64,000 nt of DNA from Candidatus Latescibacterota bacterium (lineage in GTDB: Bacteria; Latescibacterota; UBA2968). Made by a program: the position numbers and the translations under genes. This document shows positions 895-25,280 of this stretch, piece after piece. The notes below the pieces were generated by a model. It saw only the letters and a list, made by a program, of their open reading frames with translations, ran no database searches and was not told the DNA's origin. Where the stretch lies: contig OZ244960.1 in the NCBI GenBank assembly GCA_965222605.1, positions 3,264,001-3,328,000 of the forward strand, read 5' to 3'. How positions within the stretch are numbered: position 1 is the first letter of the stretch; each line of letters begins with the position of its first letter.

Positions 895-1236
895 ATGATT
901 TACGACATGCGAACCTACGATTTGAATCCCGGTGCTTTGCAAGCCTATATGGATGCGGTGCGCGAGGTGGCGCTTCCACTGCGCGAGGACTATGGTATCA
1001 AGCTTGCCGGGTGGTATTATACCGATATTGGGAGATTAAATCGCGTGGTTCATATTTGGGCGTATCGCGATTATACCCATTTTGATCAGGCGCGACAGGC
1101 TGTCCGCAGCGATCCCCGATGGGTTAATGACTATCTACCTCGCGTCAAGGGGCTGGTCGCGCGCCAGCAAGATCAAATTATGCTCGCGTCCGATTTCTTC
1201 GAGTCCCGGGTTCCGGCTCTTTCGGAAGATCCGTAA
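895..1236 (+). CDS. NIPSNAP family protein
   Basis: MIYDMRTYDL...IGRLNRVVHIWAY...R.AVRSDPRW; GGAG RBS before ATG 895. Confidence 0.85.
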   Translation: MIYDMRTYDLNPGALQAYMDAVREVALPLREDYGIKLAGWYYTDIGRLNRVVHIWAYRDYTHFDQARQAVRSDPRWVNDYLPRVKGLVARQQDQIMLASDFFESRVPALSEDP

Positions 1237-1247
1237 TTCCATTTTAT

Positions 1248-2210
1248 TCAGTCGTCATCCTCGCTCGGAATGTTCAGGCGAAACAGCACGGGGTGGTGAT
1301 CCGAGTAGTGCTGTGGAAATAAGTTCTTATCGTATGGGGCGCCTGGATAGGCACTGTTGCCTTGCCAGGTGTCGCGCATTTGATCGATCAGGTTGATTAC
1401 CTGGAAATCAAACACCTCATCTATCTCGTCTAACGCCGCACGACTGGCTGGGCGATACATAACGTGGTCATAAGGTTTACTGCTCCCTGCCGCTGTGTTT
1501 GTCTTTCGACACTCGTCATTCAGAGATATAAATCCCGCTGGTATTACTGCTTCAAGTTCCGCGGCATTTTCGATATTCATATCTCCTACGATGTAGAAGT
1601 CCCGCTCTTGCGCGTCATTGAGATCGATCCACTGGGCTATGCTCAAAAGTTCGGCTTTGCGTTCTTTTTTCTTGTTCCCACCGGGGGATAAGTGGACGTT
1701 GATGACGACAAAGTCCATTTTGCCATCTATAGTGCGGAAGCCGTGGGCGTGTGGTACGCGGGGATATACGGGATGGGCAGAGCGGTCTTCTGATAGGTAT
1801 CCGTGGGGTAAATCATCTGCAATTTTCAGTTTGCCGGGTTTGTAAAAGACTACGGACCATTCGGTGCTCGATCCCCTGTTGTGGATGTTTTCGCCTCTTC
1901 CCGTGTCTTCACAAGATAGGGAAAATTTAAAGCCTTGCGCGATCATGGCGTCGAAGAATGCATCGGCTTCGGGGTCTTCGCGATAGGATGTACCATCGCA
2001 GTATTGACCGTTATCAGGTGGGGCAACGAGTTCCTGGACGATGACCATGTCGTATTTTTCGACCAATTTCGCAAGTGCGTTGTTGTTCTTTTTTTTGTAC
2101 AGACCGACGAATTTGATGTTGAAAGAACAGACTGTGATTTGTTTGTCAGAGACTTGTGGTTGGCAACCGAATAACAACAGTAGAATGAAAAATAAAAGGT
2201 GTTTTTTCAT
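1248..2210 (-). CDS. Endonuclease/exonuclease/phosphatase (DNase I-like) lipoprotein
   Basis: Lipobox LLFGC; SFNI, VQE, VHL, GDMN, YDH and YSDHHPV motifs of the EEP fold. Confidence 0.85.
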   Translation of the reverse strand: MKKHLLFFILLLLFGCQPQVSDKQITVCSFNIKFVGLYKKKNNNALAKLVEKYDMVIVQELVAPPDNGQYCDGTSYREDPEADAFFDAMIAQGFKFSLSCEDTGRGENIHNRGSSTEWSVVFYKPGKLKIADDLPHGYLSEDRSAHPVYPRVPHAHGFRTIDGKMDFVVINVHLSPGGNKKKERKAELLSIAQWIDLNDAQERDFYIVGDMNIENAAELEAVIPAGFISLNDECRKTNTAAGSSKPYDHVMYRPASRAALDEIDEVFDFQVINLIDQMRDTWQGNSAYPGAPYDKNLFPQHYSDHHPVLFRLNIPSEDDD

Positions 2211-2312
2211 GGCGTTCCTGTGATGGAAACAATTTTCATCGCGGTTTTTTTATAAATATAAATAGGGTGACAAATCCAATACGGAGAAAGCCGGTTTCGG
2301 GCTGCGATATCT

Positions 2313-2876
2313 TCAAATTTGTGTTGCGATGGTGTTCAATTTGTAACCCGGCAGGTCGAATACCACATAAGATGGCAGGTCCAATTGTTGCCAGAGGTCG
2401 AAGCCATTTGTCCGGGTTTTTTGAGCGACGAATAAAGAGATGACGGTGCCGTGGGTGGCGATGGCGATAGTTTTGTGAGGGTGCGTTTTTACTGCTTTTT
2501 TAACGGCTTGAGTAAATCGTATGCGGGCCTGATTTGCCGTTTCATTGCCAAAGATCAGGTCGCTGGGGCGTGCAAAGAAGGTTTTTACTGTGGTGTGCCA
2601 GGTTTCTTGGGGGATAAGGGGTACGCCTTTGCGGTCGTGTTCGTGAAAGTTGGGTGCTGACGAATAGGGGATTTGAAGGGCGTCGGCGACCAGTTGACCC
2701 GTTTCTCGTGCTTTGGGTTCTTCGCTTGTGATGAGAAGGTCCGGTTTGTAAGGGCGCAACGCATCGGCAAGAGGGGTGCAACTTGCGCGTCCGCTGTCCG
2801 ATAGTTGCCAGTCTGGGGCGGATTTTGTCTCGTCGATTTGAGACATGGCGTGTTTGATTAAGATGAGATGGTTCAT
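2313..2876 (-). CDS. Histidine phosphatase (phosphoglycerate mutase) family protein
   Basis: LILIKHA, SEEPKARETG and IATHG motifs; start set at MNHLIL. Confidence 0.8.
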   Translation of the reverse strand: MNHLILIKHAMSQIDETKSAPDWQLSDSGRASCTPLADALRPYKPDLLITSEEPKARETGQLVADALQIPYSSAPNFHEHDRKGVPLIPQETWHTTVKTFFARPSDLIFGNETANQARIRFTQAVKKAVKTHPHKTIAIATHGTVISLFVAQKTRTNGFDLWQQLDLPSYVVFDLPGYKLNTIATQI

Positions 2877-3226
2877 AAATGCTCCGGTTGATGTTAATAT
2901 AACTCTGGCGTTTTTGAATATAAATATACTCAAAAAATGACCCCTGCGTAATCCGCACGATAGGAAATATCCTCCCTGGGCAGAATATGGCGTTATTGCA
3001 TGGGAGAATAGGCGCCTTTGTATCGAGTTACGCCGCGTGCTGATAGATATCGATTTGCTGATGAAAAAAACGCACGAGAGCGGGATGCCACACGCGGATT
3101 GGTGGATTCAAAATCGGTATCCCGGGGCAGTGATCTGAGGAGTATGAACTTCTTCGAAAAAAAAGAATGGGTAGAGAATTGTAATGTCCTCTACCCGTTT
3201 TTATGTTCTTTAAATCAAATTGTGAC

Positions 3227-3433: not shown

Positions 3434-3615
3434 CAGGTGTGCTCCTGAGTCTAAACAAGTCTTCTATCTAATATACAATATATAAAAAAAACCAAAACAA
3501 TGGGCTGCGTTCTGATGTTACGGGGAGGGGTCAAAAAAAACACTTGAAGTCCTCCTGAAATTTCTCGACCATGTGCGCGAGCAATCATCTGACAATTCTG
3601 GATAGGAGATTTATT

Positions 3616-4173
3616 ATGAGCGATGGACAGATCATTTTTCAAGATACATTTGATGGCGCGCTCGATAGCGGCTGGTCGTGGTTGCGGGAACAACCCGATG
3701 ATTGGCGGATTCGGGATGGTGGTCTGGAGATTTGCGTGCGTCCCGGTGTGAAAGATACGGTGCAAAATGCTTTGCTCAGATCCGCGCCAGATCGCGGTGA
3801 CGGTGCGTATGCTGTCGAGGTCACGATCACGAATCACAGCCAGCCGACGCAGCAATACGAACAGGCGGGTATTACGTGGTATCACAATGGGGAACCGGTG
3901 TTCAAAGAGGTCAAGGAACTCATTGACGGCGATCTGTACATTATTCCCGGGAAGCAGCCTATGCCCACACAGAGCGTTCGCCTGCGTCTTGTTGTTACCG
4001 CCGGCACATGGGAGGCGCAGTATTGCGCCGAGGGTGAGACCGCATTCCAGACCGCTACCGATGGTGAACTTCCGCCTCCGGGCGATGATCAGGTGAGTAT
4101 CCAGTGCTACAATGGCCCGGAAGAAGGCGACCATTGGATACGGTTTTCGGATTTTTGTATTAAGCGTGTATAA
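3616..4173 (+). CDS. Concanavalin A-like beta-sandwich protein (DUF1349 / beta-xylosidase C-terminal-like)
   Basis: FQDTFDGALDSGWSWLRE and PTQQYEQAGI motifs; AGGAG RBS. Confidence 0.7.
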   Translation: MSDGQIIFQDTFDGALDSGWSWLREQPDDWRIRDGGLEICVRPGVKDTVQNALLRSAPDRGDGAYAVEVTITNHSQPTQQYEQAGITWYHNGEPVFKEVKELIDGDLYIIPGKQPMPTQSVRLRLVVTAGTWEAQYCAEGETAFQTATDGELPPPGDDQVSIQCYNGPEEGDHWIRFSDFCIKRV

Positions 4174-4209
4174 AAAAAGCACCATCTCGTTTTGAGATGG
4201 TGCTTTTTG
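4172..4209. terminator. Bidirectional intrinsic terminator
   Basis: AAAAAGCACCATCTC-gtttt-GAGATGGTGCTTTTT between convergent genes. Confidence 0.85.
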
Positions 4210-4652: not shown

Positions 4653-7600
4653 TCAAACTGTAGCCCCAGCGAGCATCATCTGTCCTTTTTCCGTGTACTG
4701 CGCTTTATCCTCTGGTGCTACGGTGCGCCAGATCAGGAATTGTTTGCGTAGCGCGTTCATAAAATTCTTGTTGACCCGCCGCCATGACGAGGCATCGCCC
4801 GATAGCCGATCTATGGTCAATGTCATGGCAAAAATATTGTGCTCACCTGTGGGTATAGCTTCAAAATGCACCTGCTGGCTCACGCCCAAATCAAAAGGTG
4901 CCAACCAGATTGTTGTGTCAATTGTATGTCCCTGTCCGGTTGCGGTTTCAACTGAGCCGAGTCGCGCACCGTCTGTATAAAATGTGCCCAGGCTTTCACC
5001 TGCATGCGCTTGAAAATAATCGACGAGGAACACGGACAGGCCAAATACGTCTTTGCCGCCTACGGTAAATGGAAATTCAAAATGCCATTGGTCGCCTTGC
5101 GGATCGGGAAATTTCCAGCGGCGCGTCACGTCGGGCACGGCCATCATGGATGCCTGGCGCGCGGGATAGATTGACGAGAGCAAGACCACCAGCATGACCA
5201 GCATTGAGGATGTCACGGTCGAGAGTGCCGAATAGTTTACGGTAAGGCCTTGTAAGGCATCTTGCCACAGTAAAACTTTGACGACACTTTGTCCCAAAAG
5301 ATACCCGCCAACGGTTCCCAAAACAGCGTAAACACATGCCTCGGCAATAAACAAGAAGGCGATGTGCACGGGTGCTAATCCCACAGAAGAATAAATGCCG
5401 ATCTCTCGGAAGCGTTCGTACACCGATCCCATCATGGTATTGAGCACGATCAGCGCGGCGACCAGAATGGGGATAAACAAATTGGCCATGCCCTGCAAAG
5501 ATGTATTGCCCAGCGAACTGTAAACCGCGACGCGTATGCCGCCATCTGCTGTTGGAATGCCGGCAAATAATACCACCGATAACCGCGATAAAAACGACTT
5601 GATCTCGGCTTCTACATCTACTTCTTCGTGAAATCGCACGGCTACGGACTGCAATGGACTGCCCACATCGCGCAACAAGGCATAGGGTACGATCAAAATA
5701 TCATCGGGGTCCAGATGCTCAAATGGCATGGTCTCGACTTCGGGGCGCTCCAATCCTTGCCGCTCGCGGGTCTCGGTTTGCGACATGACGGTAATAAATT
5801 CGTCTTCGGTGACTTGAAAATCTGCCGGCGTCAGCGGTTCCTCATCCAGATCGACAAACAGACGCATTTTCTCCGAACTGATCAATCCAATCACCGTGAG
5901 TTGCTTGCCAAAAAGGCGAATGTACGCCTTGCCGACCTCTTGCTCTGTGATACCCAGGGTCTCCGCCATTTGATCGGGCAAAATACAGGCAGACTCGCCC
6001 GGTTGAAACCAGCGTCCAGCCCGCAACAGGGTATCGATCTGCGTCACTTGTGTCTCTTCGGGTGCCGCCCCCAGGATCCCCTGGACGCGAGAATTTCCCT
6101 TTTTATAATGCACCACGGCTTTTGATTTTTTGTCTTCTCTTGTGGCAACATACCAGCTTCGGGGGGTTACGGTTCCTCTGTCTTTAAAATTTATCCGCGC
6201 GTAATCATAAGCCGTATCTTCCAGTGGTCCCCAGAATTTGCTTCTGATCAGTACGCCGGGATACGCGCCTTCCGCATCGCGCTGAAGCTGGTGGAATTCC
6301 AATGCCGATTTAATAGATGTAAAGGATAGCACGGTAAATGTCAGCAATACCAGGGTTACAAATGTCAACCAGGTGCGCAATTTGCGCTTTTTCATATTGG
6401 CAATGCCCAGTTGAAACGCCGCTACTGATGCGCTGATCCGTCCCACGTCGGTTTCGTGTAGTAATACCTCGGCACTGCGGAGTCGCCGAATATTCTCGCT
6501 GAATCGGCTCGATAAAATCGAGATCACAAATATTGCCAGTGCCAGAATGACAAAAGCCAGCAAAATCACAAAGGGGTTGGAGAGATCAAATGCGGGGTGT
6601 ACCTGAGACAGAAAAATCCAGATGACCACAAAGACGATGCCGATCCCGCCGATTTGCAGGCGAATATCGGAGAAGGTAAAAATCAACCGCTCGAGGAAAA
6701 ATGCACAGGGAATGACGAGTAGCATGAAGAAAATCACGCCGCGGATCACATCGTTTTGCGTTGTTTTTACGTCTGGATATGCCCGCGATTCAATGCCCAT
6801 GCCCGCGCGCGTGTGTTTGACAAAAGCATCCCATTGTTTTTCCTGCATTGCGGTTTCTGCTTCGTCTAAATGTTGTTTGGCCTGTGCGTGCAATATTTCC
6901 AGTCGCTGATTTTCAATTGAGTACTGGCGCAATTTTCGCATGCGCGACTCGTTCAGCATCCACATGTCTCGCGCTGCCTGATAGGGCGTGCGAATTAGTG
7001 AGCCTGATGATAGGGTTTGAAATCCCTCCCCCCGGGCATCCCATTCGGTGTCTGCGCTTTTTGAGTTGAGCAACAAATAGCGCACGCCAATCGCGCCTGC
7101 GCGCATCGCTATTTTTACTTTTTCACCGGGCGATGTATAGACCACGCCGACGGGTTCGTCTGGACCAAATCCGATGTCATAACCGTATTCTTGCGGTGCG
7201 GTATTGCCTGCGCCATATACGCTGATATTGGATAATGTGTTCAAATACCGGGGATCGACTGTGCCGTAAAAATCGGTTGCCACACAGGGAAATAGAATGA
7301 CGGTTTGTTTTGTGATCCACCAGTTCATATTGAAATGGCCGCTGTAAATTTTACCCTGCCGTCCCTGATTGGGCGCGTATGTGATTTCGCCACTGTGCGG
7401 ATCGATGTAGTATGCCCGCACGTGTACGCGGCGCTCTGCCACGCCCGGGATATAGTATTCGCCGTTTTCATCTGCGAGATCGTAGTAAATGCGCCGCACG
7501 CCTTTGACCGATTTTTCCAGGCCCATCCGCATGGCCGCTATCGCATCTGGGCGCGATTTATCGGGGGTGATACTGCGCCGAGGAAATGTGCGTACAAATC

Positions 7601-9218
7601 CCTTGAGGCCGCGCATGCGATCGTCGGGGTCCAGTTTGTAGTCGGGCAAAAATTCCGCGTCATTGAACGACAAATCCAGCATGCCCGCAAGTACGCGAAT
7701 CTGTTTGGTCAAGTTGGTGTAGTTCACATACTCGGCCTGGTCCAGGGGGGTATCTACCCTGAATCGCGCGTCGTTTACGGTTGTCAATGACAGTGCTGGG
7801 GTGCCGGCATAAAGTACGACTTCGCTATCGCTTTTGACATTTTCGCCGGGGATGTACATATCCCAGGTCATGCCGCCTTTGGGGTTGATGCCATCGACCA
7901 TTACGTCTTTTGACGTCACGCCCATGCCTTTGGCAATGGCGGTTGCATAGCGTATAAAGGATTTGCTAAATGTGGCAAAAAATCGCGTGGAGAAATAATT
8001 GACCGCTGTATTGACCCCAAATCCCGCTGTTTGGGTCGATACGCCCATTTCATCTGTTTGGCTCGAGAGATCCAATCCGATGAACAGGTCGATGTCGATG
8101 GGTTCGGTCATGAGCGCGGCAAAGTGCTCTTCTTTGCGCGAGTGCCGGTTCAGAAAGTCGCAAATCCCTCGGAATCCCAGGTGGTGTGCCGAAGATGCGA
8201 GGAAGAGTACGGTGTATTTGGGGCGGTGCGCTTGAAAATACTCGGCCAGACGCATGAGTCCGACGATACCACACGCCATTTCAGCGCCGGGTGCCTGTGC
8301 GGGTACGACAGACATGGCGTCGTAGTAGGCGTTGATGACCACAACTTTTTTGCTCATTACTGGATCCGATCCTTCGATCCAGCCCAATACGTTGGATATG
8401 TCGTTTTTCTTCCAGGGCATCCGGGATTCGAGTTGGACTTCTATTTCGCCCTGGTCTGATAGGAGAGCGCGCAATTTTTTTCCGTGTTCGCGGTCGATCC
8501 AGAATCGCTCTACGCTGTTGGGCACTTGCAAAAATTTGGTTTCGGCCTGTGTATAAGATGTGGTGTCTGGCGCAATAAAAATGATTTGTTGCGCGCCCAG
8601 GACAGCGGCGTCGAGCCATCTGTTCCAGGTGTTAAAGTTCAGAAGGACGACGGTGTTTTCCACGTCTTTGCCGTCGTATGCCTTAAATTCGCCGTCGCCT
8701 CCGTCGATCAGACGCGTTCGCACACCGCCCGGTGGCAATGTGGAGGTTTTGACCAGGTTGGGCCATAGTCCGGAGAGCGGAAAGACTTCGCCGGATGAGA
8801 CGATTGTCAATTGGCTGCCTTCATCGACGGGTGAGGTCACGCCGTAGGTTTCTGTTTCTACGTTTTTTAAGCCGAGTGCGCGGAAGCGTTGTTCGATAAA
8901 TTGCGCGGCGGCATCGTGACCCGGGTAGCCCGGTACGCGGGATTTATATTGGGTAAAGGTCGCCATTAATGCGCGCACCTCTGCTTCTGTGATTTCGCGT
9001 TTGACGCGATCAGCGACGACTTCGGCACCCGGAACAGGTGCTGGTTCTACGGGTTCGGGGGTTTGCAATCCCAGTGTTTTTTGTAGCAATGGATTGACCG
9101 TATCAGGTCCCAAAATAACTGCGCCAAACCCAAATACGACAACCCCGAGCAATGCGAACCAACCGATGCGACGATACATGGGGGTCCTTTCAAAGATGCG
9201 ATATGTCGTGTAATCCAA
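4653..9218 (-). CDS. 1521-aa membrane protein: degenerate M28 peptidase-like ectodomain, multi-TM region, MacB-like periplasmic domain and FtsX-like permease
   Basis: N-terminal TM; SRVPGYPGHDAAAQFI and VVINAYYD..APGAE (M28-like); NMKKRKLRTWLT and SVYERFREIGIYSSVG (FtsX/MacB signatures). Confidence 0.85.
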   Translation of the reverse strand: MDYTTYRIFERTPMYRRIGWFALLGVVVFGFGAVILGPDTVNPLLQKTLGLQTPEPVEPAPVPGAEVVADRVKREITEAEVRALMATFTQYKSRVPGYPGHDAAAQFIEQRFRALGLKNVETETYGVTSPVDEGSQLTIVSSGEVFPLSGLWPNLVKTSTLPPGGVRTRLIDGGDGEFKAYDGKDVENTVVLLNFNTWNRWLDAAVLGAQQIIFIAPDTTSYTQAETKFLQVPNSVERFWIDREHGKKLRALLSDQGEIEVQLESRMPWKKNDISNVLGWIEGSDPVMSKKVVVINAYYDAMSVVPAQAPGAEMACGIVGLMRLAEYFQAHRPKYTVLFLASSAHHLGFRGICDFLNRHSRKEEHFAALMTEPIDIDLFIGLDLSSQTDEMGVSTQTAGFGVNTAVNYFSTRFFATFSKSFIRYATAIAKGMGVTSKDVMVDGINPKGGMTWDMYIPGENVKSDSEVVLYAGTPALSLTTVNDARFRVDTPLDQAEYVNYTNLTKQIRVLAGMLDLSFNDAEFLPDYKLDPDDRMRGLKGFVRTFPRRSITPDKSRPDAIAAMRMGLEKSVKGVRRIYYDLADENGEYYIPGVAERRVHVRAYYIDPHSGEITYAPNQGRQGKIYSGHFNMNWWITKQTVILFPCVATDFYGTVDPRYLNTLSNISVYGAGNTAPQEYGYDIGFGPDEPVGVVYTSPGEKVKIAMRAGAIGVRYLLLNSKSADTEWDARGEGFQTLSSGSLIRTPYQAARDMWMLNESRMRKLRQYSIENQRLEILHAQAKQHLDEAETAMQEKQWDAFVKHTRAGMGIESRAYPDVKTTQNDVIRGVIFFMLLVIPCAFFLERLIFTFSDIRLQIGGIGIVFVVIWIFLSQVHPAFDLSNPFVILLAFVILALAIFVISILSSRFSENIRRLRSAEVLLHETDVGRISASVAAFQLGIANMKKRKLRTWLTFVTLVLLTFTVLSFTSIKSALEFHQLQRDAEGAYPGVLIRSKFWGPLEDTAYDYARINFKDRGTVTPRSWYVATREDKKSKAVVHYKKGNSRVQGILGAAPEETQVTQIDTLLRAGRWFQPGESACILPDQMAETLGITEQEVGKAYIRLFGKQLTVIGLISSEKMRLFVDLDEEPLTPADFQVTEDEFITVMSQTETRERQGLERPEVETMPFEHLDPDDILIVPYALLRDVGSPLQSVAVRFHEEVDVEAEIKSFLSRLSVVLFAGIPTADGGIRVAVYSSLGNTSLQGMANLFIPILVAALIVLNTMMGSVYERFREIGIYSSVGLAPVHIAFLFIAEACVYAVLGTVGGYLLGQSVVKVLLWQDALQGLTVNYSALSTVTSSMLVMLVVLLSSIYPARQASMMAVPDVTRRWKFPDPQGDQWHFEFPFTVGGKDVFGLSVFLVDYFQAHAGESLGTFYTDGARLGSVETATGQGHTIDTTIWLAPFDLGVSQQVHFEAIPTGEHNIFAMTLTIDRLSGDASSWRRVNKNFMNALRKQFLIWRTVAPEDKAQYTEKGQMMLAGATV

Positions 9219-9431: not shown

Positions 9432-9833
9432 CTATGGCACCATTGTGGATATAGCTGCAGTTTGTGGTTCTGTATCGATGTTGTCATCTGAAAAGCTGAT
9501 AACGTTAAAGGTTTCTGGATTAAATTCTGATTCTCGGCGAACTAACTCGCTGAATGAGACAAATTGAACAAGTAGTCCCACATCAAATGCAGCACAAAGT
9601 TTGTGCAATATTTGTACTGATGGTGGGCCACTATCAGGGTCTTCCAATTCGGCTATTTGGCTCTCGGGAATGCCACTGTACTTTGCAAGATCCTTTTGTG
9701 TCCACCCTCTCGCCCTCCGAAGAGCGCGGATTTGGAAAGGAACCTCAATATCAAACTGCCCCTCGACATAACCTTTCCGATATTCCTTATCTTGTAATTC
9801 TTCCCAAAGTTCAGAGCTTGAATTCAAGTTCAT
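9432..9833 (-). CDS. XRE HTH antitoxin (HigA-like)
   Basis: QIRALRRARGWTQKDLAK...IAELE; overlaps the upstream toxin. Confidence 0.8.
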   Translation of the reverse strand: MNLNSSSELWEELQDKEYRKGYVEGQFDIEVPFQIRALRRARGWTQKDLAKYSGIPESQIAELEDPDSGPPSVQILHKLCAAFDVGLLVQFVSFSELVRRESEFNPETFNVISFSDDNIDTEPQTAAISTMVP

Positions 9834-10176
9834 GAGCTTCTCCTCTTTGTATTTCGGAGTGACGTGTTACCGCCGTCTTATATGCGTTTGGTGGTTTATA
9901 TATGTTGCCTTTATGGGTAAAACCACACAAAAATGTTATCTGCCTTAACGATGGAAAGTAACAGAATATTCGATGTGGTACACGGTGTTCACCGGGCCAA
10001 CGCGCTTCGTGCAATGCTTGAAATTTGTCAAAGTAAGGTCTTTGGAGTTGAGTAAGTTGTTTTACAATACGCAAAAACCGTTTAAGACGCGATCTGTTGT
10101 TCGGAGATAATCTCTGATACCAGTCAGTTACAGGGAGCCGACCATTTTTACTTTGATATTCTTGGAAATACCACAC
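9811..10176 (-). CDS. RelE/ParE-superfamily (Gp49-like, HigB) toxin
   Basis: YQSKNGRLPVTDW...LHEARW...HRIFCYF...FLCGFTHK; toxin-before-HTH order. Confidence 0.7.
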   Translation of the reverse strand: MWYFQEYQSKNGRLPVTDWYQRLSPNNRSRLKRFLRIVKQLTQLQRPYFDKFQALHEARWPGEHRVPHRIFCYFPSLRQITFLCGFTHKGNIYKPPNAYKTAVTRHSEIQRGEAHELEFKL

Positions 10177-10330: not shown

Positions 10331-12676
10331 TTATTGTTCCATAATTCTTTCTATGGCCTTTTGGTATCTATCTGAAAGAGTCTCTTCCTCTCGCTTTGTT
10401 ACTCGTTCATTGATTTCATTTTTGTTTAAAATAAACAGTGCCTCTTGAGAGCTTGTTTGCTGGCTTATCAAATCATGAACCACAACTTCAATCTGATAGA
10501 GACCCGGTTTTAATTTTTCTGTATCCAATTCAATATATACCGGCTCTGTGGTGCTGTTTCCATTATAGTCAGAACTAATCGAGATCTCTGGCTTTTTGTC
10601 GGTAACTAATTTGCCCAGGAAATATGATATGCTGCCCAATAGACTGGCATTTTTTCGTACATCTTCCCATATCGTGTATTTAATGCGGAATTTCGTTTGA
10701 CCAAATGCATCTTTTTGCAAATTGTAGATTTCGTAATAGATATTAACTGCCTGATTTCTGAGATAATTTCGCGTGGGCATGGGAATGACCCAAACATCGC
10801 CCTTTTGAAACTTGTATGATTGGGGTTCGGTGAAAATGTGCCAGGCCATTTCAATATCGCTTATGCTCAGTGAATCAACAGCATAATTTGGGATGTGAAT
10901 TTGCTGTTGAAAGAACCCCCATTTTCCAGAATTTTGGTCCGTGAGATGAATGATGAGTCGATAGTCTCCCGATGAAGCTTTGAGAGACATGGCATCAATC
11001 GCGATACCGGATTGCATATTTGACAAAGATACCGTCTGTTGAGAGCTGTTGATGACAACACCTTCCTCATTCACAAGAGATGCCGTCCAGTTAACAAGTG
11101 CAGGGGTTTTTGAGGTGTCATTTGGGGCAAAAATATCCTTTGGCAATAATCCAAGATAAATATTCTGATCTGTTTCGCGGTTCTTTCCCCGGAATGTCGC
11201 CAGGTCATAGTAAAAGTTCAAAATATCAGTGCCGGGTATTCCATTATAAAAATCCGGTGCCTCTTTGGCATGGTGCCCAATAATAACTTGAGGATGGAAA
11301 TCTTGTGCTGCTACTGCCATTTTAGGACTCTTGGGAGGGAGCGGATAATCCCAACCGCCACTCATAAATCGATCCGTAAATACAATTTCTATGCCTTTGC
11401 CAATACCGAGATAAATCCACGATTCCCATGGGACTATGGGCGAACCACCGCGATCGCGATCTATCGGATAAATAGGATCTGTCAGAGCACCTTTACTCTG
11501 CTTGCGCTTCAGTGTGTTCCATTCGGGAACTTGCTCTATGCGCTCAGCCCTTTGAATATTTAAAGCAAGTTCGTAAGCCAATCTTTCCTTCAAAAATTCA
11601 ACAGATAGGGGAGGGACTGTGCCTCCATGATTTCCGCCAAATTTATGATCCGGTTCACCAAATTTGATATACACCTCGCCGCGCCGATCCCAGGGTTGTT
11701 TCCCGTTAAAAAACTGGCGTGCATACCATACTCGTCGATAGTGTTCTATTTTCCTGATATTGGCCTTTACACTCAATAAGGGGTCTCGCTTCTTCCAAAA
11801 TTCATTTATGAACATTCCTCGTTCTTCTTGTTTTAAGCTGCTAAAGATATTTTGTTCTTCGGGCGACATCATAGATGTGATGTTATCGTAATATCTGCGC
11901 TCATCTTCTGGAATCAAACGCAGGAACCGGTGAAATAAATAATCAGCCACCTTTACTTCACCCATGGCTGCGTAGGCTTGAGCCTGAAGCGGTAACCAAT
12001 AGTCTTTGTCCGCGTGACTTGCTGGTAATTGTTCAATAATCTCTAAAACCATCTTATACCGATAGTCCTTTGCGTAATTCAGTGCCATTTGATACAGAAA
12101 GTCCGCATCTTGTGGAACTAACTGAAGATATGACTTAAAATACGCCAGCATTTTCTGTTCGTTTTTTTGTTCGGCATACCATTCTGCAAGTGCCATGTGA
12201 GCAGGTGCATATAAAGAATCATCCTTGACAATGCCTTTTAGAGTTGATACGGCATCGGTACTTTTGTCTTTCATTTGCAGATGTACAATATCCATTTTTA
12301 CTTCTGTCATATTTGGATCTATGGCAAGTGCGCGACGAAGATTATAAAAGGCTTTTTGCAGTTTGCCTTTTTGGTTCGCGTATGTTAAGCCCAATCCGTG
12401 ATACGCTTGTGCTGATTTTGTGTAACGAATGGCTTTTTTAAATGCTTCTTCGGCCTGCTTAAAGTCTTTCTGCTTCAACGTCAGCCAACCCAATTGCATA
12501 TAGGCATCTCCGTCTTTGGAATTATCCTGTAAATGGGATGTAAGAACCTCAATAGAGTCTGTTAACGACTCGAGATTTAATTGGTCATACGCTACATCAG
12601 GCTGATTCTCGATTCCCCACAATATTTGCGGAAATAAGAAGATCCAGAGCAGCAACCAATGGTTCTTTTTTTTCAT
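10331..12676 (-). CDS. Exported TPR + GWxTD-domain protein (paralogue 1)
   Basis: Signal peptide, TPR repeats, FWKKRDP...EHYRRVWYA...PWDRRGEVYIKFGEPD, C-terminal beta domains (LSISDIE, IYYEIYNL, PGLYQIEV). Confidence 0.85.
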   Translation of the reverse strand: MKKKNHWLLLWIFLFPQILWGIENQPDVAYDQLNLESLTDSIEVLTSHLQDNSKDGDAYMQLGWLTLKQKDFKQAEEAFKKAIRYTKSAQAYHGLGLTYANQKGKLQKAFYNLRRALAIDPNMTEVKMDIVHLQMKDKSTDAVSTLKGIVKDDSLYAPAHMALAEWYAEQKNEQKMLAYFKSYLQLVPQDADFLYQMALNYAKDYRYKMVLEIIEQLPASHADKDYWLPLQAQAYAAMGEVKVADYLFHRFLRLIPEDERRYYDNITSMMSPEEQNIFSSLKQEERGMFINEFWKKRDPLLSVKANIRKIEHYRRVWYARQFFNGKQPWDRRGEVYIKFGEPDHKFGGNHGGTVPPLSVEFLKERLAYELALNIQRAERIEQVPEWNTLKRKQSKGALTDPIYPIDRDRGGSPIVPWESWIYLGIGKGIEIVFTDRFMSGGWDYPLPPKSPKMAVAAQDFHPQVIIGHHAKEAPDFYNGIPGTDILNFYYDLATFRGKNRETDQNIYLGLLPKDIFAPNDTSKTPALVNWTASLVNEEGVVINSSQQTVSLSNMQSGIAIDAMSLKASSGDYRLIIHLTDQNSGKWGFFQQQIHIPNYAVDSLSISDIEMAWHIFTEPQSYKFQKGDVWVIPMPTRNYLRNQAVNIYYEIYNLQKDAFGQTKFRIKYTIWEDVRKNASLLGSISYFLGKLVTDKKPEISISSDYNGNSTTEPVYIELDTEKLKPGLYQIEVVVHDLISQQTSSQEALFILNKNEINERVTKREEETLSDRYQKAIERIMEQ

Positions 12677-12757: not shown

Positions 12758-14743
12758 TCAATACCATTTATGAACCGTATGTCCGCGGGGCATGAACCAT
12801 AGCGCATCTACAATGAGGCCCAGTGCGGTTGATAAGATGTATGCCACGAGCATGCCGACAAAAAACGGCTTTGAGCGGCGGTAAAAGGGCGCTCCGCCAA
12901 TGCGCAATAATGTGAATTTGATCAGCCAGGCGGCAAAGATGGTGAAGCTGGTGAGGCGGGCGAGCATGGTGCCCGATAGGGCGAGTCCGATGGGGTGCAG
13001 GGGCCACGATGTGAATTGGTATCGCAAGAATAGCAGGGCGTACATGGCGAGTGCCCCGATAAGAAAGAACCAGTAGTCGATCACTTCCATCGGTTGCGGC
13101 GATACGATTGCGTTGACGGAATTTTGATATCCGCCTACGCCAGCGCGAATGATGAGCCAGTTTGGCGAGAAATTATACCCGCCAATGCGATAGCCCAGCC
13201 ATATTGTAAATAGGGTGGATGAGACGATACCGACTACAAAAGCCACGCAGAGGCCGCCAAAGAGGGGGCGTTTGTTGCCGGGGATGAAGTCGGATAGGCG
13301 GTTGAGGTGCGTACCCACGGAAAAGGTAAATCCGCGAAAGTGATTGATGGCAACAGATGCGGGATAGAGCATGGCGTGTGTTGCTGCGGGAATGGCGCGG
13401 GCGCCGCCCATGAGCGCGGTTGTCAGGGACCAGGCCGAGGCCGGCGCATTGACGTAAATAAGTCCAGAATCGGCCAGGATTTTTGATACAGCGCCGTATG
13501 TCAAGAACATGGTTGGCAACAGGATGGCGATGACTTTCCACGCAATGCCCGATGCCGACAACCAGACCAGTGCGTAGGCGATTGAAACGGCGAGGCCGCA
13601 AAAGGCCGCGCGATAGGACATGAGTTCGCGGCTGTCGTCTATGTGCTCGCTTTTTGGATAAAGGGCTTTTTGAAATGCCTCTTTTAGATGTGCCCGCGCA
13701 ATCCATACCCACCACAGAGATAGGGCGACAAATGCGCCTGTTGTTTGCCAGGAATAGCGTTTGGTGGCATAGTAGCGGTGAAAGGCCGGTACGCCCAGTT
13801 GATCGAGAATGCCGGATTCTACGGTGAACATGAGATCGAAGAGCCACAGGCTGAGCAATACTTCCAGGCTCGCAAAATACGAAAAGCATATTCCGACGGT
13901 GCTTACGAATACCCACTGCGGCGGAAAGTTCCGGCCTATGGGTACCCAGGTGCCACCAGCGGTTGGAAATCTTGGCAGCGCGGGATGAAACCACGCGATG
14001 ATGTTCCAGACGAATATCACGCCTACCACGCCAAATCCGGTCCAGAACATCCGACCTTGCATAAATTCGGGCAAATAGGTCCGCCCGGTGCCGGGCTGTG
14101 TGGTCAGTTCAACGATGGGTTCCATCGCGGGATAGACCAGTTTTTCGTATTCTGCCCATTGTTTGCGCATGATGACCGAGGCACAAAAGCAGGCGAGTGC
14201 CACTGCACATATAAAGGTGAACCACCAGAAGAGCGGTCCGATCCAGACGGACCAGGGCACGGGCGCACCGGCGGGCAAGCCATCGTAAAACCAGTTCATT
14301 GCGCCGTCGCGATTGGATGGGATAATCCAATCGGGCAGGTACGGATGCAAAAACTCTGCCCATCGGTTTTCGGGTGTGGAAAAATAGTAGGGGGTTACGA
14401 TGACGCCGACGAGATATCCGCTTACGCCATAAGTGGGACCGAGGGAGCTGATAAAGCCCATTGAAAAGATTACGAGCCATTCGCTCGGTGAAAAGGCAAA
14501 GGGTTTGCCAAACCACCGCGCGAGCACACTGCAGACAATCAGACACAATAGTGTGAGCATCAGATTGCCCATGGGCATGTGGCTGTAGGCCATGAAGGAG
14601 CTGTGCAAGATATATCGCACGACTGTTGCCAGTGCGCTGATTGCTATGACCAGCACAAGCCCAAAGATCAGTGATCGGACTGTGACCCCTTTGTTCGCAT
14701 GATCTGGCGAATCTGCGATTGGATATGTTTGTTCTGCGCTCAT
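12758..14743 (-). CDS. DUF6785/DUF6784-type multipass membrane protein (putative OPT-like transporter)
   Basis: YYFSTPENRW, IMRKQWAEYEKLVYP, WPLHPIG and KPFFVGM motifs; many TM helices. Confidence 0.8.
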   Translation of the reverse strand: MSAEQTYPIADSPDHANKGVTVRSLIFGLVLVIAISALATVVRYILHSSFMAYSHMPMGNLMLTLLCLIVCSVLARWFGKPFAFSPSEWLVIFSMGFISSLGPTYGVSGYLVGVIVTPYYFSTPENRWAEFLHPYLPDWIIPSNRDGAMNWFYDGLPAGAPVPWSVWIGPLFWWFTFICAVALACFCASVIMRKQWAEYEKLVYPAMEPIVELTTQPGTGRTYLPEFMQGRMFWTGFGVVGVIFVWNIIAWFHPALPRFPTAGGTWVPIGRNFPPQWVFVSTVGICFSYFASLEVLLSLWLFDLMFTVESGILDQLGVPAFHRYYATKRYSWQTTGAFVALSLWWVWIARAHLKEAFQKALYPKSEHIDDSRELMSYRAAFCGLAVSIAYALVWLSASGIAWKVIAILLPTMFLTYGAVSKILADSGLIYVNAPASAWSLTTALMGGARAIPAATHAMLYPASVAINHFRGFTFSVGTHLNRLSDFIPGNKRPLFGGLCVAFVVGIVSSTLFTIWLGYRIGGYNFSPNWLIIRAGVGGYQNSVNAIVSPQPMEVIDYWFFLIGALAMYALLFLRYQFTSWPLHPIGLALSGTMLARLTSFTIFAAWLIKFTLLRIGGAPFYRRSKPFFVGMLVAYILSTALGLIVDALWFMPRGHTVHKWY

Positions 14744-15101
14744 AAGGGGCTGGGAACAGGAACCACCGAACAGATACTGTCATGAGCAACCAATGATAGC
14801 ATAGTTACCCCGGCAATCCCGCGATCAGTTCCCTGGATGTCAATGAGTAGTGTCCGAACATTTCGAGAAAAAGCACGGCGCCCCGCGTCTGTCCGAGGTT
14901 TTCGTGCGTTTCAAAAGATTCCATTCCCGTGCGGTTTTCACTTTACCATTGTTTTTTTAGAGCGGTAAATTTTCGTGGCTTATCACCGCTATGTGTGACT
15001 ATATTAGCCCAACTCAATCGCAAAGTTACGTGACATATTTTGAAATACAAGAAAATTTGGGCTTGCTTCAAACGCAAAAAAGTCCATTCCTCGAAAATAC
15101 T

Positions 15102-17090
15102 ATGGCCCTTCCCAAAACTCTGTCTCCCATATCTGAAGATGCCCAAAGAAAAGAGGCGCGCATTACGCCTCGCAGTATCGCGTTGGGGCTTCTGATTTCA
15201 TGTTTGGCGAGTGCATGGGTGACGTATTCTCGCACGGCTGCCAATACTTCTGCCGTCAATATTACGCATCTTCCGGTTTCCATTTTTGCCATTTTTCTGT
15301 GTGTTTTTATCGCTAATACGCTCTTGAAAATTCGGTTTGGTAGGCAGGGGCTGGCTTCTCGAGAATTGGCTGTTATTTTCGCGATGGGCCTGATCGGTGC
15401 GATTATTCCCGCGCGTGGGCTAACCGGTGTCTGGCTGGGGCTGATGGCCGCGCCTCATTATCTGGCAACGCCGGAGAACGGATGGATTGGCAATGTTCAG
15501 CCCTATCTTCCGTCCTATCTTTTTCCCTCCAATGAACACGGCCAGACCACGTTTCTGTACGAGGGGCTACCATCGGGTGTGCCCATTCCGTGGGAGGTCT
15601 GGGTGGGTCCGGTTTTCTGGTGGGTTACGCTTATTTTGGCCGGGTTTGTGGTGTGTTTTTGTCTGGTGGTTATTCTTCGCAAGCAATGGGTTGAGAGCGA
15701 GCGTCTGGATTATCCCTTGCTCGCGCCTGTTCTCGAGATGGTTGCCGAAACACGCGATTCTTCGGGACGAAGCGGCTGGCCGGTCCTGTTTCGGGGGTAT
15801 CTTTTTTGGATTGGTTTTGGTCTGGCTTTTGGGATTATTGGCTGGAATATTATTACTTATTTTTCCACCACGGTTCCTCGCATTAGCATGAGTCCCAATG
15901 CCGGGCTTTTTTATTTTGCGCGCCTTTTTCCACCGCTGTTGACACATATTAATACTTATACGATCGGTTTCGGATATTTTGTCAATCTCGAAATTCTTTT
16001 TTCGATATGGTTTTTCCACTTTGTGCTGATGGGCGAAATTGCTCTTATCCGAAAAACCGGTTTTCAGTTTGGACGCATGCACCAGAAGGGCGGTGGATGG
16101 GGTGATCCCCTGGTGCAGTGGCAGTGCATGGGCGCGCTTTTTGTGTTTGTGGCGTGGGGTCTCTGGACAGCGCGACGGCATTTGAAGGCGGTTTTTCGGA
16201 AGGCATGGAACGACGATCCCGATGTGGATGACGCGGATGAACTTCTTTCTTATCGCACCGCGGTGATCGGCTTGATTGTCGGCATTGTCTATATCATTGC
16301 CTGGCTTCTGAAGGCGGGGGTCGCGCCGGGTCTCCTAATGATCACCATTCCGGCTGCTATTGTGATCTATCTCGCTCTTGCACGCTTTGTGTGCGAGTCG
16401 GGTACGCTGTACCTGGGTATTCCCACGACGCCTCTCGATATGGGATTTCAACTCATCGGCACTGTTACCATTGATCCGAGGACGATTGCCGTGGGTTCTA
16501 CTGCCCACGCGCTGCGCTGGATGCTGTTTATGCCGGCTCTGTCGCAGTGTGCCAAAGTTTTTGACCGCGTGCCGGGCAATAAGCGCGTGCTTTTTTGGGT
16601 GTTGCTTTTGGGGTTGGGCGGTGCGCTGGTGGTCAATATTTCGATGGTGCTCTATCTGGGCTATACACACGGGGCGTACAATTTTACGGAGTATCCTTTT
16701 ACGCGGTACGCACCTCGTCTTTACGACGCTGTTGTGAACAACATCAAATCTCCAGAACCAGCGTCATGGGAGCGGGTAGTGCTGTTCGGCTTGGGGGGCC
16801 TCATTTTTGCGATTCTCACTGCTCTTCGGTATCGTCTGCCCTGGTGGCCTATCCATCCCGTGGGTTTTATTATTACGACGACCAGTATCCTCCACGAAAT
16901 TACGTCTCTTATTATTGTCTGGCTGTTCAAAGCTATTGTCACCCGGGTGGGCGGTGTATCTCTCTACCAGAAGTACCGTCCGCTCTTTTTTGGTATTATT
17001 GCGGGCAGGGCCACGGGTGTGCTCATTTCGTTTATTGTCGATTTGATCTGGTTCCCCGGCGGGGGTCACGGGGTACACGGTTGGGCGTGA
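15102..17090 (+). CDS. DUF6785/DUF6784-type multipass membrane protein, divergent paralogue
   Basis: HYLATPENGW, ILRKQWVESERLDYP, WWPIHPVG and RPLFFGI motifs; start set at MALPK. Confidence 0.8.
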   Translation: MALPKTLSPISEDAQRKEARITPRSIALGLLISCLASAWVTYSRTAANTSAVNITHLPVSIFAIFLCVFIANTLLKIRFGRQGLASRELAVIFAMGLIGAIIPARGLTGVWLGLMAAPHYLATPENGWIGNVQPYLPSYLFPSNEHGQTTFLYEGLPSGVPIPWEVWVGPVFWWVTLILAGFVVCFCLVVILRKQWVESERLDYPLLAPVLEMVAETRDSSGRSGWPVLFRGYLFWIGFGLAFGIIGWNIITYFSTTVPRISMSPNAGLFYFARLFPPLLTHINTYTIGFGYFVNLEILFSIWFFHFVLMGEIALIRKTGFQFGRMHQKGGGWGDPLVQWQCMGALFVFVAWGLWTARRHLKAVFRKAWNDDPDVDDADELLSYRTAVIGLIVGIVYIIAWLLKAGVAPGLLMITIPAAIVIYLALARFVCESGTLYLGIPTTPLDMGFQLIGTVTIDPRTIAVGSTAHALRWMLFMPALSQCAKVFDRVPGNKRVLFWVLLLGLGGALVVNISMVLYLGYTHGAYNFTEYPFTRYAPRLYDAVVNNIKSPEPASWERVVLFGLGGLIFAILTALRYRLPWWPIHPVGFIITTTSILHEITSLIIVWLFKAIVTRVGGVSLYQKYRPLFFGIIAGRATGVLISFIVDLIWFPGGGHGVHGWA

Positions 17091-25000: not shown

Positions 25001-25280
25001 TGATTTCGGTTTCGACTTCGGCAATGGTTTCCAATTGTTCGGTGCGGTCTTCGTCTCGCTGCAACGCGGCCAATTCTTCTTTGAGCTGAATGAGATGTTT
25101 TTGAGTATCATCAGTCGCTTCGGCAATGCGCGTGCGGAACTCCGTTGTTTTGTCTTTTAATGCCTCGTCGGACAAAGAGGCATATTCTTTGTAGAATTGA
25201 TTGATTTCATCCACAACCGGTTGCATCTTTTTGACATCCCGATCGTGTTTGCTGCCGAAAATTTTTGTCAGGAAATTCAT
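22062..25280 (-). CDS. secA: Preprotein translocase ATPase SecA
   Basis: MATGEGKT, DEVDSILIDEARTPLIISG, ATNMAGRGTDIKL, RRIDRQLRGRSGRQGDPG and C-terminal SEC-C CPCGS..KYKHCHG. Confidence 0.98.
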   Translation of the reverse strand: MNFLTKIFGSKHDRDVKKMQPVVDEINQFYKEYASLSDEALKDKTTEFRTRIAEATDDTQKHLIQLKEELAALQRDEDRTEQLETIAEVETEIKDIERDVLDEIHPEAYAVFKETCRRFKERRKSWDRAGDQIEWHEIPYDVQLVGATVLHQGKIAEMATGEGKTLAAGLALYLNGLLGHGVHLVTVNSYLAKRDAMWLGPVYLFLGLTVGVIQDRALGVEGFIMEEEGEDGYRMRVCDHKDACLMDIVYGTKDQFGFDYLYDNMAIRPEDLIQREHYFAIIDEVDSILIDEARTPLIISGPVSESTSHRYEEMRPLVEKLVRTQTQIVNNTLKQAEEELEAGDEYEGGILLLQVQRGMPKNRRFMKRLQEEGIKRLVQRVEADYIRDKRTGELDEDLYFSIDEKSHIIDLTENGRDEISHNPDDFVLPDLDEVLQDIEQNKSLSDAEQDQAKEAAYQDYAQKNESIHSVRKLLQAYSLYEKDVQYMIDDGKVVIIDEYTGRPQPGRRFADGLHQALEAKEKVKVERDTQTVATITLQNYFRLYDRLAGMTGTAETEAVEFHQIYKLDVVAIPTHEPVRRIDSNDWIYRTKREKYNALIDEIEHLHEQKLPVLVGTISVETSELISRMLARKKIKHQVLNARQNVQEAQIIAQAGQPGAVTIATNMAGRGTDIKLGLGIVKAPEGHQCALIADPDNTQPLCPYIDEYGCRDEVPCGMTIIGTERHESRRIDRQLRGRSGRQGDPGSSRFFISLEDDLMRLFGSERIARVMDRLGAEEGEVIEHSWVTKSIGTAQKRVEARNFEFRKQVLDYDDVMNQQREVIYDRRRHALEEEDISAMISEMIDETVDALLDIHIPPDAHPEDWNFDGLMEDLRNVFLQAPVIPDEDLPQLREAGLRDRVLRGIREAYDRRERVLGEDRMRQIERMIYLSVFDEKWKEHLREMDDLKEGIGLRGYGQKNPLIEYKREGYEMFVALLEDINRETLRLLFRISIEETPAQPRTQQPARLSLEHRDATGMGFAGMPEPGADELTANSTEGNEPKKQPVRVEKKVGRNAPCPCGSRKKYKHCHGRA

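Follow-up and report, generated by a model that had tools for sequence, protein, structure and literature searches.

A large family of FtsX permeases fused to an extracytoplasmic PA-M28 domain with a remodelled, histidine-bearing pocket

Permeases of the FtsX family, such as those of MacB, LolCDE and FtsEX, are regarded as mechanotransmitters driven by ATP, and M28 domains either as two-zinc aminopeptidases or, in a few eukaryotic proteins, as non-catalytic receptors. The three type VII ABC systems share a four-helix FtsX module with a large domain between the first two transmembrane helices (TM1 and TM2), an N-terminal amphipathic helix and a coupling helix of the ER.xEIG type. Among M28 proteins, the PA-domain aminopeptidases are soluble, secreted enzymes, the transferrin receptor and GCPII (M28B) are single-pass type II proteins with a helical dimerisation domain, and the nicastrin/nicalin type is defined by a single-pass protein partnered with an APH-1- or TMEM147-type subunit. 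Here we describe a gene at 4653..9218(-) of a 64-kb stretch of a Candidatus Latescibacterota genome (assembly GCA_965222605.1, contig OZ244960.1, positions 3264001-3328000), which we refer to as the window. We conclude with high confidence that its giant product is a cytoplasmic-membrane protein with eight transmembrane (TM) helices and belongs to a large, uncharacterised PA-M28-FtsX family. A literature search found nothing in print on this fusion or on the DUF families encoded next to it.

The open reading frame (ORF) comprises 1521 codons, open from a TTG at 9218. Close homologues (95-84% identity) are 1508 residues long and start at the residue that matches M14; the ATG at 9179-9177 has AAGGA just before it and is for that reason probably the real start, giving a protein of 1508 residues. 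Residue numbers in the following are counted from the TTG. We rejected a frameshift or a chimeric origin in view of the fully open frame and the abundance of full-length homologues with the same architecture. The AlphaFold models cover the ectodomain (residues 40-850; predicted local distance difference test, pLDDT, 86.9; predicted template modelling score, pTM, 0.85) and the membrane half (850-1521; pLDDT 80.9, pTM 0.50).

The predicted topology, in which we have high confidence, places the N-terminus inside, followed by one TM anchor (residues 18-36, 9111..9167(-); hydropathy 2.46 over 19 residues) and about 785 residues outside (~37-823). This ectodomain begins with a PA plus M28 aminopeptidase-fold domain (residues ~75-520, 7659..8996(-)), identified by Foldseek, by the model (pLDDT 86.9) and by Pfam (Peptidase_M28, PF04389, at 276-510; E 2.9e-8, 34.1 bits, cut-off 21.3), within which a PA-like insert occupies residues ~135-265 and the M28 core residues 268-520. 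A beta-rich region without a Pfam match follows (residues ~536-735, 7014..7613(-); strands 497-696 of the ectodomain model), and then a long helical stalk that enters the membrane (residues ~744-823, 6750..6989(-); model helices 705-726, 732-753 and 757-810). Hydropathy and model place three extra TM helices between the ectodomain and the FtsX module (residues ~824-903, 6510..6749(-)), so that the helices at 18-36, 824-842, 852-879 and 884-902 are added to the four of FtsX.

The MacB/LolC-type FtsX module itself (residues ~927-1360, 5139..6440(-)) was recognised by Pfam (FtsX, PF02687, at 1248-1357; E 2.8e-14, 53.6 bits), phmmer and Foldseek, and runs in the order amphipathic helix, TM1, periplasmic domain (~970-1240), TM2, coupling-helix motif ERFREIG, TM3 and TM4. 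The protein ends in a conserved cytoplasmic domain of about 155 residues (~1365-1521, 4656..5126(-)), which has conserved columns in alignments A1, A3 and A5. It combines a beta-sheet with long helices and has weak Bet v 1/PYL-like Foldseek matches (E 7e-3 to 2e-2), with no match in Pfam or NCBIfam. For the giant protein as a whole, no NCBIfam model scored above its cut-off (MacB, for example, reached 24.7 bits vs 966).

The initial annotation had described a fusion of extra TM helices, a MacB-like periplasmic domain and an FtsX permease, and hydropathy, models, Pfam and Foldseek all bear this out. MacB, LolCDE and FtsEX are the best sequence and fold matches of the C-terminal half: Foldseek of the membrane half returned MacB (5gko, 1e-15; also 5lil), LolCDE and FtsEX, as well as the isolated MacB periplasmic domain (5c59, 5e-6), phmmer found MacB (5lil, 6.3e-9), and PF12704 is precomputed on many homologues. 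The four-helix FtsX domain has its extracytoplasmic domain between TM1 and TM2 and a cytoplasmic coupling helix between TM2 and TM3. In the latter, ERFREIGIY aligns with ERTKEIGVR of MacB, and ERFREIG is nearly invariant in bacterial and archaeal members (A3, A5), which suggests from the sequences that something still docks there. In contrast to MacB, LolCDE and FtsEX, the giant protein has no fused or adjacent ATPase, and it adds four TM helices, the ectodomain of about 785 residues and the cytoplasmic C-terminal domain.

A search with the ectodomain returned 2174 cluster representatives at E<=1e-3, of which 746 reach E<=1e-30. Their length is mostly 1450-1700 residues, so that, judged by length, the fusion is the rule in the family. 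Of 168 Latescibacterota genomes, 155 have the giant gene, mostly with several matches per genome, and the 13 genomes without one all belong to a single family (f10). Besides Latescibacterota, the genomes with a family gene include some named Gemmatimonadota, and a search with a distant member recovered full-length relatives from sources named Hodarchaeales, Promethearchaeota, Heimdallarchaeota, Bathyarchaeota, Ignisphaera, Thermoprotei, Armatimonadetes and Planctomycetes. The genome studied here carries three paralogues, namely the window copy and genes at 145120-149610 (70% identity) and 4956567-4961393 (35-44%).

The most distinctive feature of the family is its M28 site, which we mapped by alignment to BSAP/YwaD of B. 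subtilis (6hc6), the Aneurinibacillus enzyme (2ek8), the Vibrio/Aeromonas aminopeptidase (AAP) and nicalin. The string that the initial annotation quoted is present, with VVVINAYYD starting at residue 292 (nt 8345) and SSAHH ending at residue 346 (nt 8181), and the alignments confirm that canonical M28 motifs are replaced within this block (8181..8345(-); Y298, Y299, D300, S303, E313, H345 and H346): the His of HxD by Y298, the bridging Asp of GAxD by E313 and the Glu pair by H345-H346. Two further site residues follow, D383 (nt 8068-8070(-)) and D489 (nt 7750-7752(-)). In AAP numbering, the equivalences are H97 to Y298, D99 to D300, bridging D117 to E313, general base E151 to H345, E152 to H346, D179 to D383 and H256 to D489. 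The five canonical metal ligands (His, bridging Asp, Glu, Asp, His) are accordingly represented by Y298, E313, H346, D383 and D489, of which D383 alone keeps the canonical residue, with E313 as a conservative change; the giant protein has lost both His ligands.

This pattern is retained across the family. Among 121 close relatives, Y298, E313 and H345 are each present in 120 and D300 in all 121; the Tyr, Asp, Glu and first His singled out in the initial annotation are thus conserved. In 151 cluster representatives at 30-55% identity, we counted Y298 in 111 (His in 12), D300 in 148, S303 in 146, E313 in 110 (Asp in 19), H345 in 147, D383 in 141 and D489 in 120, with position 346 variable and occupied by Phe in 74. 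Even in 117 more distant members, D300 and S303 are invariant, H345 is found in 113 and D383 in 105, and positions 298 and 313 are divided (His 57 and Tyr 55 at position 298; Asp 66 and Glu 39 at position 313). None of the 389 aligned relatives has the canonical H..D..EE set, and none keeps the Glu pair. The replacement of the general-base Glu by His, with loss of the neighbouring Glu ligand, is therefore, at the level of sequence, a hallmark of the family, and the alignments indicate that the site pattern is under strong constraint rather than drifting. We conclude with high confidence that the pocket is a conserved remodelled site composed of Y/H298, D300, S303, E/D313, H345 and D383. Its residues exclude a canonical two-zinc aminopeptidase and could still form a one-metal enzyme, since about half of the distant members keep the H, D and D of one metal site.

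The giant gene travels with genes for other polytopic membrane proteins. We compared 81 family genes in Latescibacterota (79 genome loci plus the window) and, in a second set, 80 diverse metagenome loci with 76 full-length family genes. Neighbouring ORFs were crude calls (longest, at least 80 residues, greedy non-overlap) clustered by BLASTP; those of the metagenome set were scored with hidden Markov models (HMMs) built from our own alignments. Immediately upstream, on the same strand, 52 of the 81 Latescibacterota genes have a DUF6785+DUF6784 protein gene (c1; within 4 kb in 64/81), which in the window lies at 12758..14743(-) (Pfam 4.7e-95 and 7.9e-18). Immediately downstream, 37 of the 81 have a gene for a second polytopic protein of about 810 residues without a Pfam family (c2), and both partners are present in 31. 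In the metagenome set, c2 is adjacent to 64 of the 76 genes; in 45 cases it follows the family gene in the same orientation, and in 40 of these the gap is at most 20 nt. Where at least 2.2 kb of flank was available on both sides (n=42), c2 was adjacent in 40 cases, and the locus contained a DUF6785-like gene in 32 and a LolD-like ATPase gene in 5. The gene module is kept over a range of identities from 96% to about 25%.

The nature of these partners points weakly towards oligopeptide transporters (OPT). The only PF03169 (OPT) match in the genome is a DUF6785 paralogue below the cut-off (E 9.8e-4, 18.8 bits vs 25.8), and the DUF6785 protein and c2 themselves have no PF03169 match at E<=10 in Pfam, no NCBIfam model above its cut-off, and neither a Walker A nor an LSGG motif. 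The Atlas cluster that is apparently c2's own is auto-named 'Peptide transporter family protein' (0.98), and for the DUF6785 protein the closest Atlas clusters that bear a name are 'peptide transporter' and OPT (scores 0.78-0.80), with PF03169 carried by 31% of members. In comparisons by hhalign with true OPTs from the phylum, DUF6785 reached P 0.013 over 253 columns and c2 P 0.035 over 40 columns. Between DUF6785 and c2, the program gave nothing in global mode and E 0.05 (probability 1%) in local mode; with no significant relation, we do not claim that the two are paralogues. A 683-residue ORF in locus L182 (PF03169, 48.7 bits) was considered as a bridge between c1 and OPT and dropped, as the c1 HMM did not match it.

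Our preferred reading, which we advance tentatively and rate somewhat below even, is that the giant protein is a permease acting as a mechanotransmitter, with a remodelled M28 pocket that binds the N-termini of peptides on behalf of neighbouring permeases. It would form the core of a membrane complex with the polytopic proteins encoded beside it, DUF6785/DUF6784 upstream and c2 downstream, the latter being translationally coupled in most family members although not beside the window copy. Outside the cytoplasmic membrane, the pocket would recognise peptides or proteins by their free N-termini, with no efficient hydrolysis. The FtsX module would act as a mechanotransmitter in the manner of MacB, LolCDE and FtsEX: a cytoplasmic driver would dock on the coupling helix ERFREIG and move the stalk and ectodomain, and captured peptides would pass on to the permeases encoded next to it, which may be OPT-like. 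The candidate driver in Latescibacterota is an orphan ATPase of the LolD/MacB type, whose gene lies elsewhere in the genome (G000:C1:186351-187127).

The candidate emerged from the neighbourhood comparison. An ATPase of this type (c6; best models LolD, FtsE, DarD, DevA and MacB) is present in 21 of the 81 Latescibacterota loci, and in one clade it lies about 0.8 kb upstream of the DUF6785-giant-c2 cluster without a permease of its own. The orphan gene, which lies outside the window (7349-8128 of locus L080), is an orthologue, at 82% identity, of the ATPase found upstream of the cluster in that clade, has no FtsX gene beside it and is located 37 kb from paralogue 2. Within the genus, the distance from giant gene to ATPase ranges, by coordinates, from 3 to 60 kb. 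In family f10, both the giant gene and this ATPase subfamily (E<=1e-85) are absent from all 13 genomes, which form one lineage and hence count as one event. Binding between this trans candidate and the giant protein is putative; a complex prediction for the membrane half (A3) and the orphan ATPase (A4), run without controls, scored 0.27 and 0.30 against a mark of 0.32.

Several observations weigh against this reading. As the initial annotation had stated, no ABC ATPase is encoded nearby: the 64-kb window contains no PF00005 match, the nearest of the 91 in the genome (3200395-3200844 and 3331130-3331579) are each more than 55 kb from the giant gene, and the giant protein has neither a Walker A nor an LSGG motif. 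The search for a partner ATPase that it had recommended gave the orphan LolD/MacB-type gene, syntenic in some lineages, and nothing in the window. LolD-like ATPases occur in only 5 of the 76 metagenome loci, where that of L136 stands directly beside a small FtsX-like ORF and that of L084 may be similar; given this scarcity and the ATPase-free window, a dedicated ATPase may not exist. Outside the clades named above, most loci have no nearby ATPase, and in family f4, genomes carry up to nine matches to the ectodomain query and only one ATPase (~59% identity). The window copy is atypical in that no c2 gene adjoins it; the genome's only two c2 genes lie beside the other two paralogues. DUF6785 (PF20581) has 57 matches in this genome, two of them in the window (12758-14743(-) and 14991-17090(+)), and none in 14 control genomes; it is therefore a greatly expanded family, and the upstream neighbour need not be a dedicated partner. 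Neighbourhood counts derive from crude ORF calls in related, non-independent loci. The OPT link lies below every significance threshold, so that 'OPT-like' denotes a lead and nothing firmer. Finally, conserved acidic and His residues at all former ligand positions would fit a working metal site equally well.

Locus L084, the closest to the member named Heimdallarchaeota (67% identity), has a tandem pair of LolD-like ATPase genes together with a short FtsX-like ORF (1130-3211) about 3-5 kb upstream of its DUF6785-giant-c2 cluster. In four other metagenome loci (L094, L134, L138 and L153), large proteins of about 950-1100 residues with weak family-HMM scores are encoded within a few genes of the giant one and may represent additional FtsX-bearing proteins of these neighbourhoods.

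What the ectodomain does depends in part on its kinship. The initial annotation had likened it to the inactive M28 domains of nicastrin and nicalin; in that reading, it would be a prokaryotic counterpart and specific relative of these, controlling access, sterically or by way of the substrate, to a machine for membrane translocation or assembly. With a profile (A2) built on the M28 cores of 17 diverse members, nicalin does rank first among solved structures (7tm3_7, 3e-12, 49.6 bits), in an alignment that spans the HYD...V.P...GAD block with an ungapped HYD-to-GA[DE] loop; the canonical site is lost in the family, which occurs in metagenome-assembled genomes (MAGs) named as Asgard archaea. However, active BSAP (44.7 bits) follows by 5 bits only, then 2ek8 (41.3) and an Aeromonas aminopeptidase chain with His at the base position (39.2), whereas nicastrin is not significant (E 1.2; Dictyostelium chain 0.24), and the nicalin lead vanishes with the other profiles. 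Full-length Latescibacterota sequences (A1) gave 50.7 bits for 2ek8, 27.9 for AAP and 23.5 for nicalin, with nicastrin absent at E<=10, and the archaeal profile (A5) gave 90 for 2ek8, 61 for BSAP, 49-55 for AAP, 43 for the transferrin receptor, 35 for GCPII and 31 for nicalin, besides weak matches to the ZNRF3 PA domain. The structure comparison likewise recovered the PA-M28 fold (2ek8, 4.5e-22; 6hc6, 9.8e-22; transferrin receptor, 1.9e-21; GCPII, 4e-17; also PaAP of P. aeruginosa), and every match listed (ranks 1-50) is a PA-M28 aminopeptidase, a transferrin receptor or a protein of GCPII type, with neither nicalin nor nicastrin among them. Nicalin is moreover degenerate at different positions, as it keeps the His and the bridging Asp and has G-K for the Glu pair, and the giant protein, with eight TM helices, an FtsX module and the partners DUF6785 and c2, is not a single-pass protein; no APH-1- or TMEM147-like match appears among the Foldseek rows listed for the membrane half. 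In one account of the nicastrin aminopeptidase-like domain, E333 and the DYIGS motif are the proposed substrate-binding site; as far as that account goes, E333 stands three residues before DYIGS, that is, in the block equivalent to EE and not in the GAxD block (PMC2647162). Profiles and models together thus bring the domain no closer to nicastrin and nicalin than to ordinary M28 peptidases, and we consider the counterpart reading decidedly improbable. The ectodomain appears instead to descend from PA-bearing M28 aminopeptidases, which are its best matches and carry a PA-type insert at the same place (PF02225 is precomputed on 7 of 120 listed distant homologues), with their canonical H, D, EE, D, H (seen in 6hc6 and 2ek8) changed to Y/H, E/D, H-x, D, D/G/N; the comparisons lend no support to a particular relationship with nicalin or nicastrin. 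What persists is an analogy, which we find plausible: nicalin (BOS complex) and nicastrin (gamma-secretase), although eukaryotic, single-pass, differently partnered and altered at other residues, likewise present an M28-fold ectodomain with a non-canonical site on a membrane machine, and the transferrin receptor, a non-catalytic binder, resembles GCPII and the giant protein in its membrane-anchored PA plus protease-like ectodomain, although neither M28B protein has a permease module. A recognition module on a membrane machine is our best functional guess, with residual catalysis as its main rival. In the rival reading, the M28 domain would be an aminopeptidase tethered to the membrane, in which His345 serves as general base beside a non-canonical metal site, probably a mononuclear one; it would trim peptides outside the cytoplasm, which the neighbouring permeases then take up. 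With a single exception, the former ligand positions hold conserved residues capable of binding metal (Y/H298, E/D313, D383 and D489) next to the near-invariant His, among the distant members one of the two zinc sites has all its ligands (H298 in 57, D313 in 66 and D383 in 105 of 117), and the best-scoring Aeromonas/Vibrio chain, 2anp, has His at the general base in the alignment and presumably retains some activity. Since the second Glu, a metal ligand, is replaced by F, H, Y, W or N, the last His ligand by D, G or N, and both His ligands are gone in the giant protein, we regard such an enzyme as possible but somewhat unlikely.

The membrane half raises the parallel question of what, if anything, drives it. 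A driver acting in trans is our preferred answer, and a mode without an ABC ATPase is its serious rival; in that case, the FtsX module would be a scaffold or gate driven by partner secondary transporters or by the C-terminal cytoplasmic domain. The ATPase-free window, the low counts of LolD-like genes (5 of 42 well-flanked metagenome loci and 21 of 81 in Latescibacterota) and a C-terminal domain conserved family-wide where MacB, LolC and FtsX have nothing all speak for it. Set against these are the nearly invariant coupling-helix motif, the synteny of the orphan ATPase with one paralogue clade and the fact that, to our knowledge, FtsX-family proteins known so far all work with an ATPase, so that we judge the ATPase-less mode unlikely. 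Much less probable again is an FtsEX-like regulator of cell-envelope hydrolysis, in which the degenerate peptidase domain would take the role of EnvC, with its degenerate LytM domain, in activating or positioning a wall or envelope hydrolase. FtsEX/EnvC complexes do occur among the Foldseek matches of the membrane half (8tzk, 3.9e-4; 8i6o, 2e-3), and the long helical stalk with a non-canonical peptidase domain is reminiscent of them, but MacB and LolCDE match far better than FtsX (1e-15 vs 4e-4), the loci examined have no conserved amidase or other wall-hydrolase gene, and the family extends to archaea of lineages not known to have a murein-type wall. Degenerate peptidase domains on ABC machines, such as the C39-like domain of HlyB-type exporters or EnvC with FtsEX, resemble the giant protein in concept only, as inactive peptidase folds by which an ABC machine recognises its substrate or partner: the folds differ (C39 and LytM/M23), that of HlyB lies on the other side of the membrane, and EnvC is a separate polypeptide.

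A wider proposal, which we regard as a long shot, is that the PA-M28-FtsX protein and its translationally coupled polytopic partner or partners constitute an unrecognised membrane machine, shared by several bacterial phyla and by archaea that carry Asgard names, in which an FtsX mechanotransmitter with no dedicated or with a shared trans-acting ATPase, together with OPT-like carriers, would capture and process extracytoplasmic peptides through a His-based M28 pocket. In a bolder version still, the archaeal members would represent the stock of eukaryotic membrane-bound M28 pseudo-peptidases such as nicalin. Apart from such proposals, the family is both widespread and unstudied, with hundreds of clusters at 50% identity, members in nearly every genome of one phylum and further members in archaea. 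It is new as a three-part membrane module, with a MacB-type permease bearing a His-based M28 pocket as its core and DUF6785/DUF6784 and c2 as partners, and it unites FtsX and M28 types in one polypeptide with a near-invariant His for the catalytic Glu, usually without an ATPase gene in cis, and with one or two polytopic partners that are themselves uncharacterised. Solving it would give a function to DUF6785/DUF6784, abundant as they are in this genome, would test whether an FtsX module can run on a driver acting in trans or without ATP, and would provide a bacterial and archaeal model for ligand recognition by non-canonical M28 ectodomains.

Further genes lie around the window copy. Between the DUF6785 gene and the giant gene lies a gene for a TPR protein with a GWxTD domain (c3; 10331..12676(-); TIGR04514, 56.3 bits, cut-off 28), which is specific to the orthologue group of the window copy, where up to three occur per locus, and is not found around the other paralogue clades. 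Between c3 and the giant gene, an overlapping pair encodes a Gp49-like protein (a weak match, 18.2 bits) and an HTH_3 protein (9432-9833 and 9811-10176, both (-)). By sequence, the pair looks like a toxin-antitoxin system of the HigB/HigA type that was inserted here and does not belong to the giant gene's module; the orthologous locus L001 (96%) lacks it.

Downstream of the giant gene, a 244-residue ORF at 3451-4185(-) (c13) was considered as a conserved partner and rejected, as it is probably a shadow of the overlapping ORF at 3571-4173(+). The former has an odd composition and no family, and the latter a weak concanavalin-like match (GH43_C2, 1e-4) just under the cut-off; of the two, 3571-4173(+) is probably the gene. 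Elsewhere in the window, the 1072-residue SecA encoded at 22062-25280(-) has a DEAD match that extends over residues 5-561 against a profile of 290 positions, with the preprotein cross-linking domain at 388-518, which suggests that its motor domain carries a sizeable insertion.

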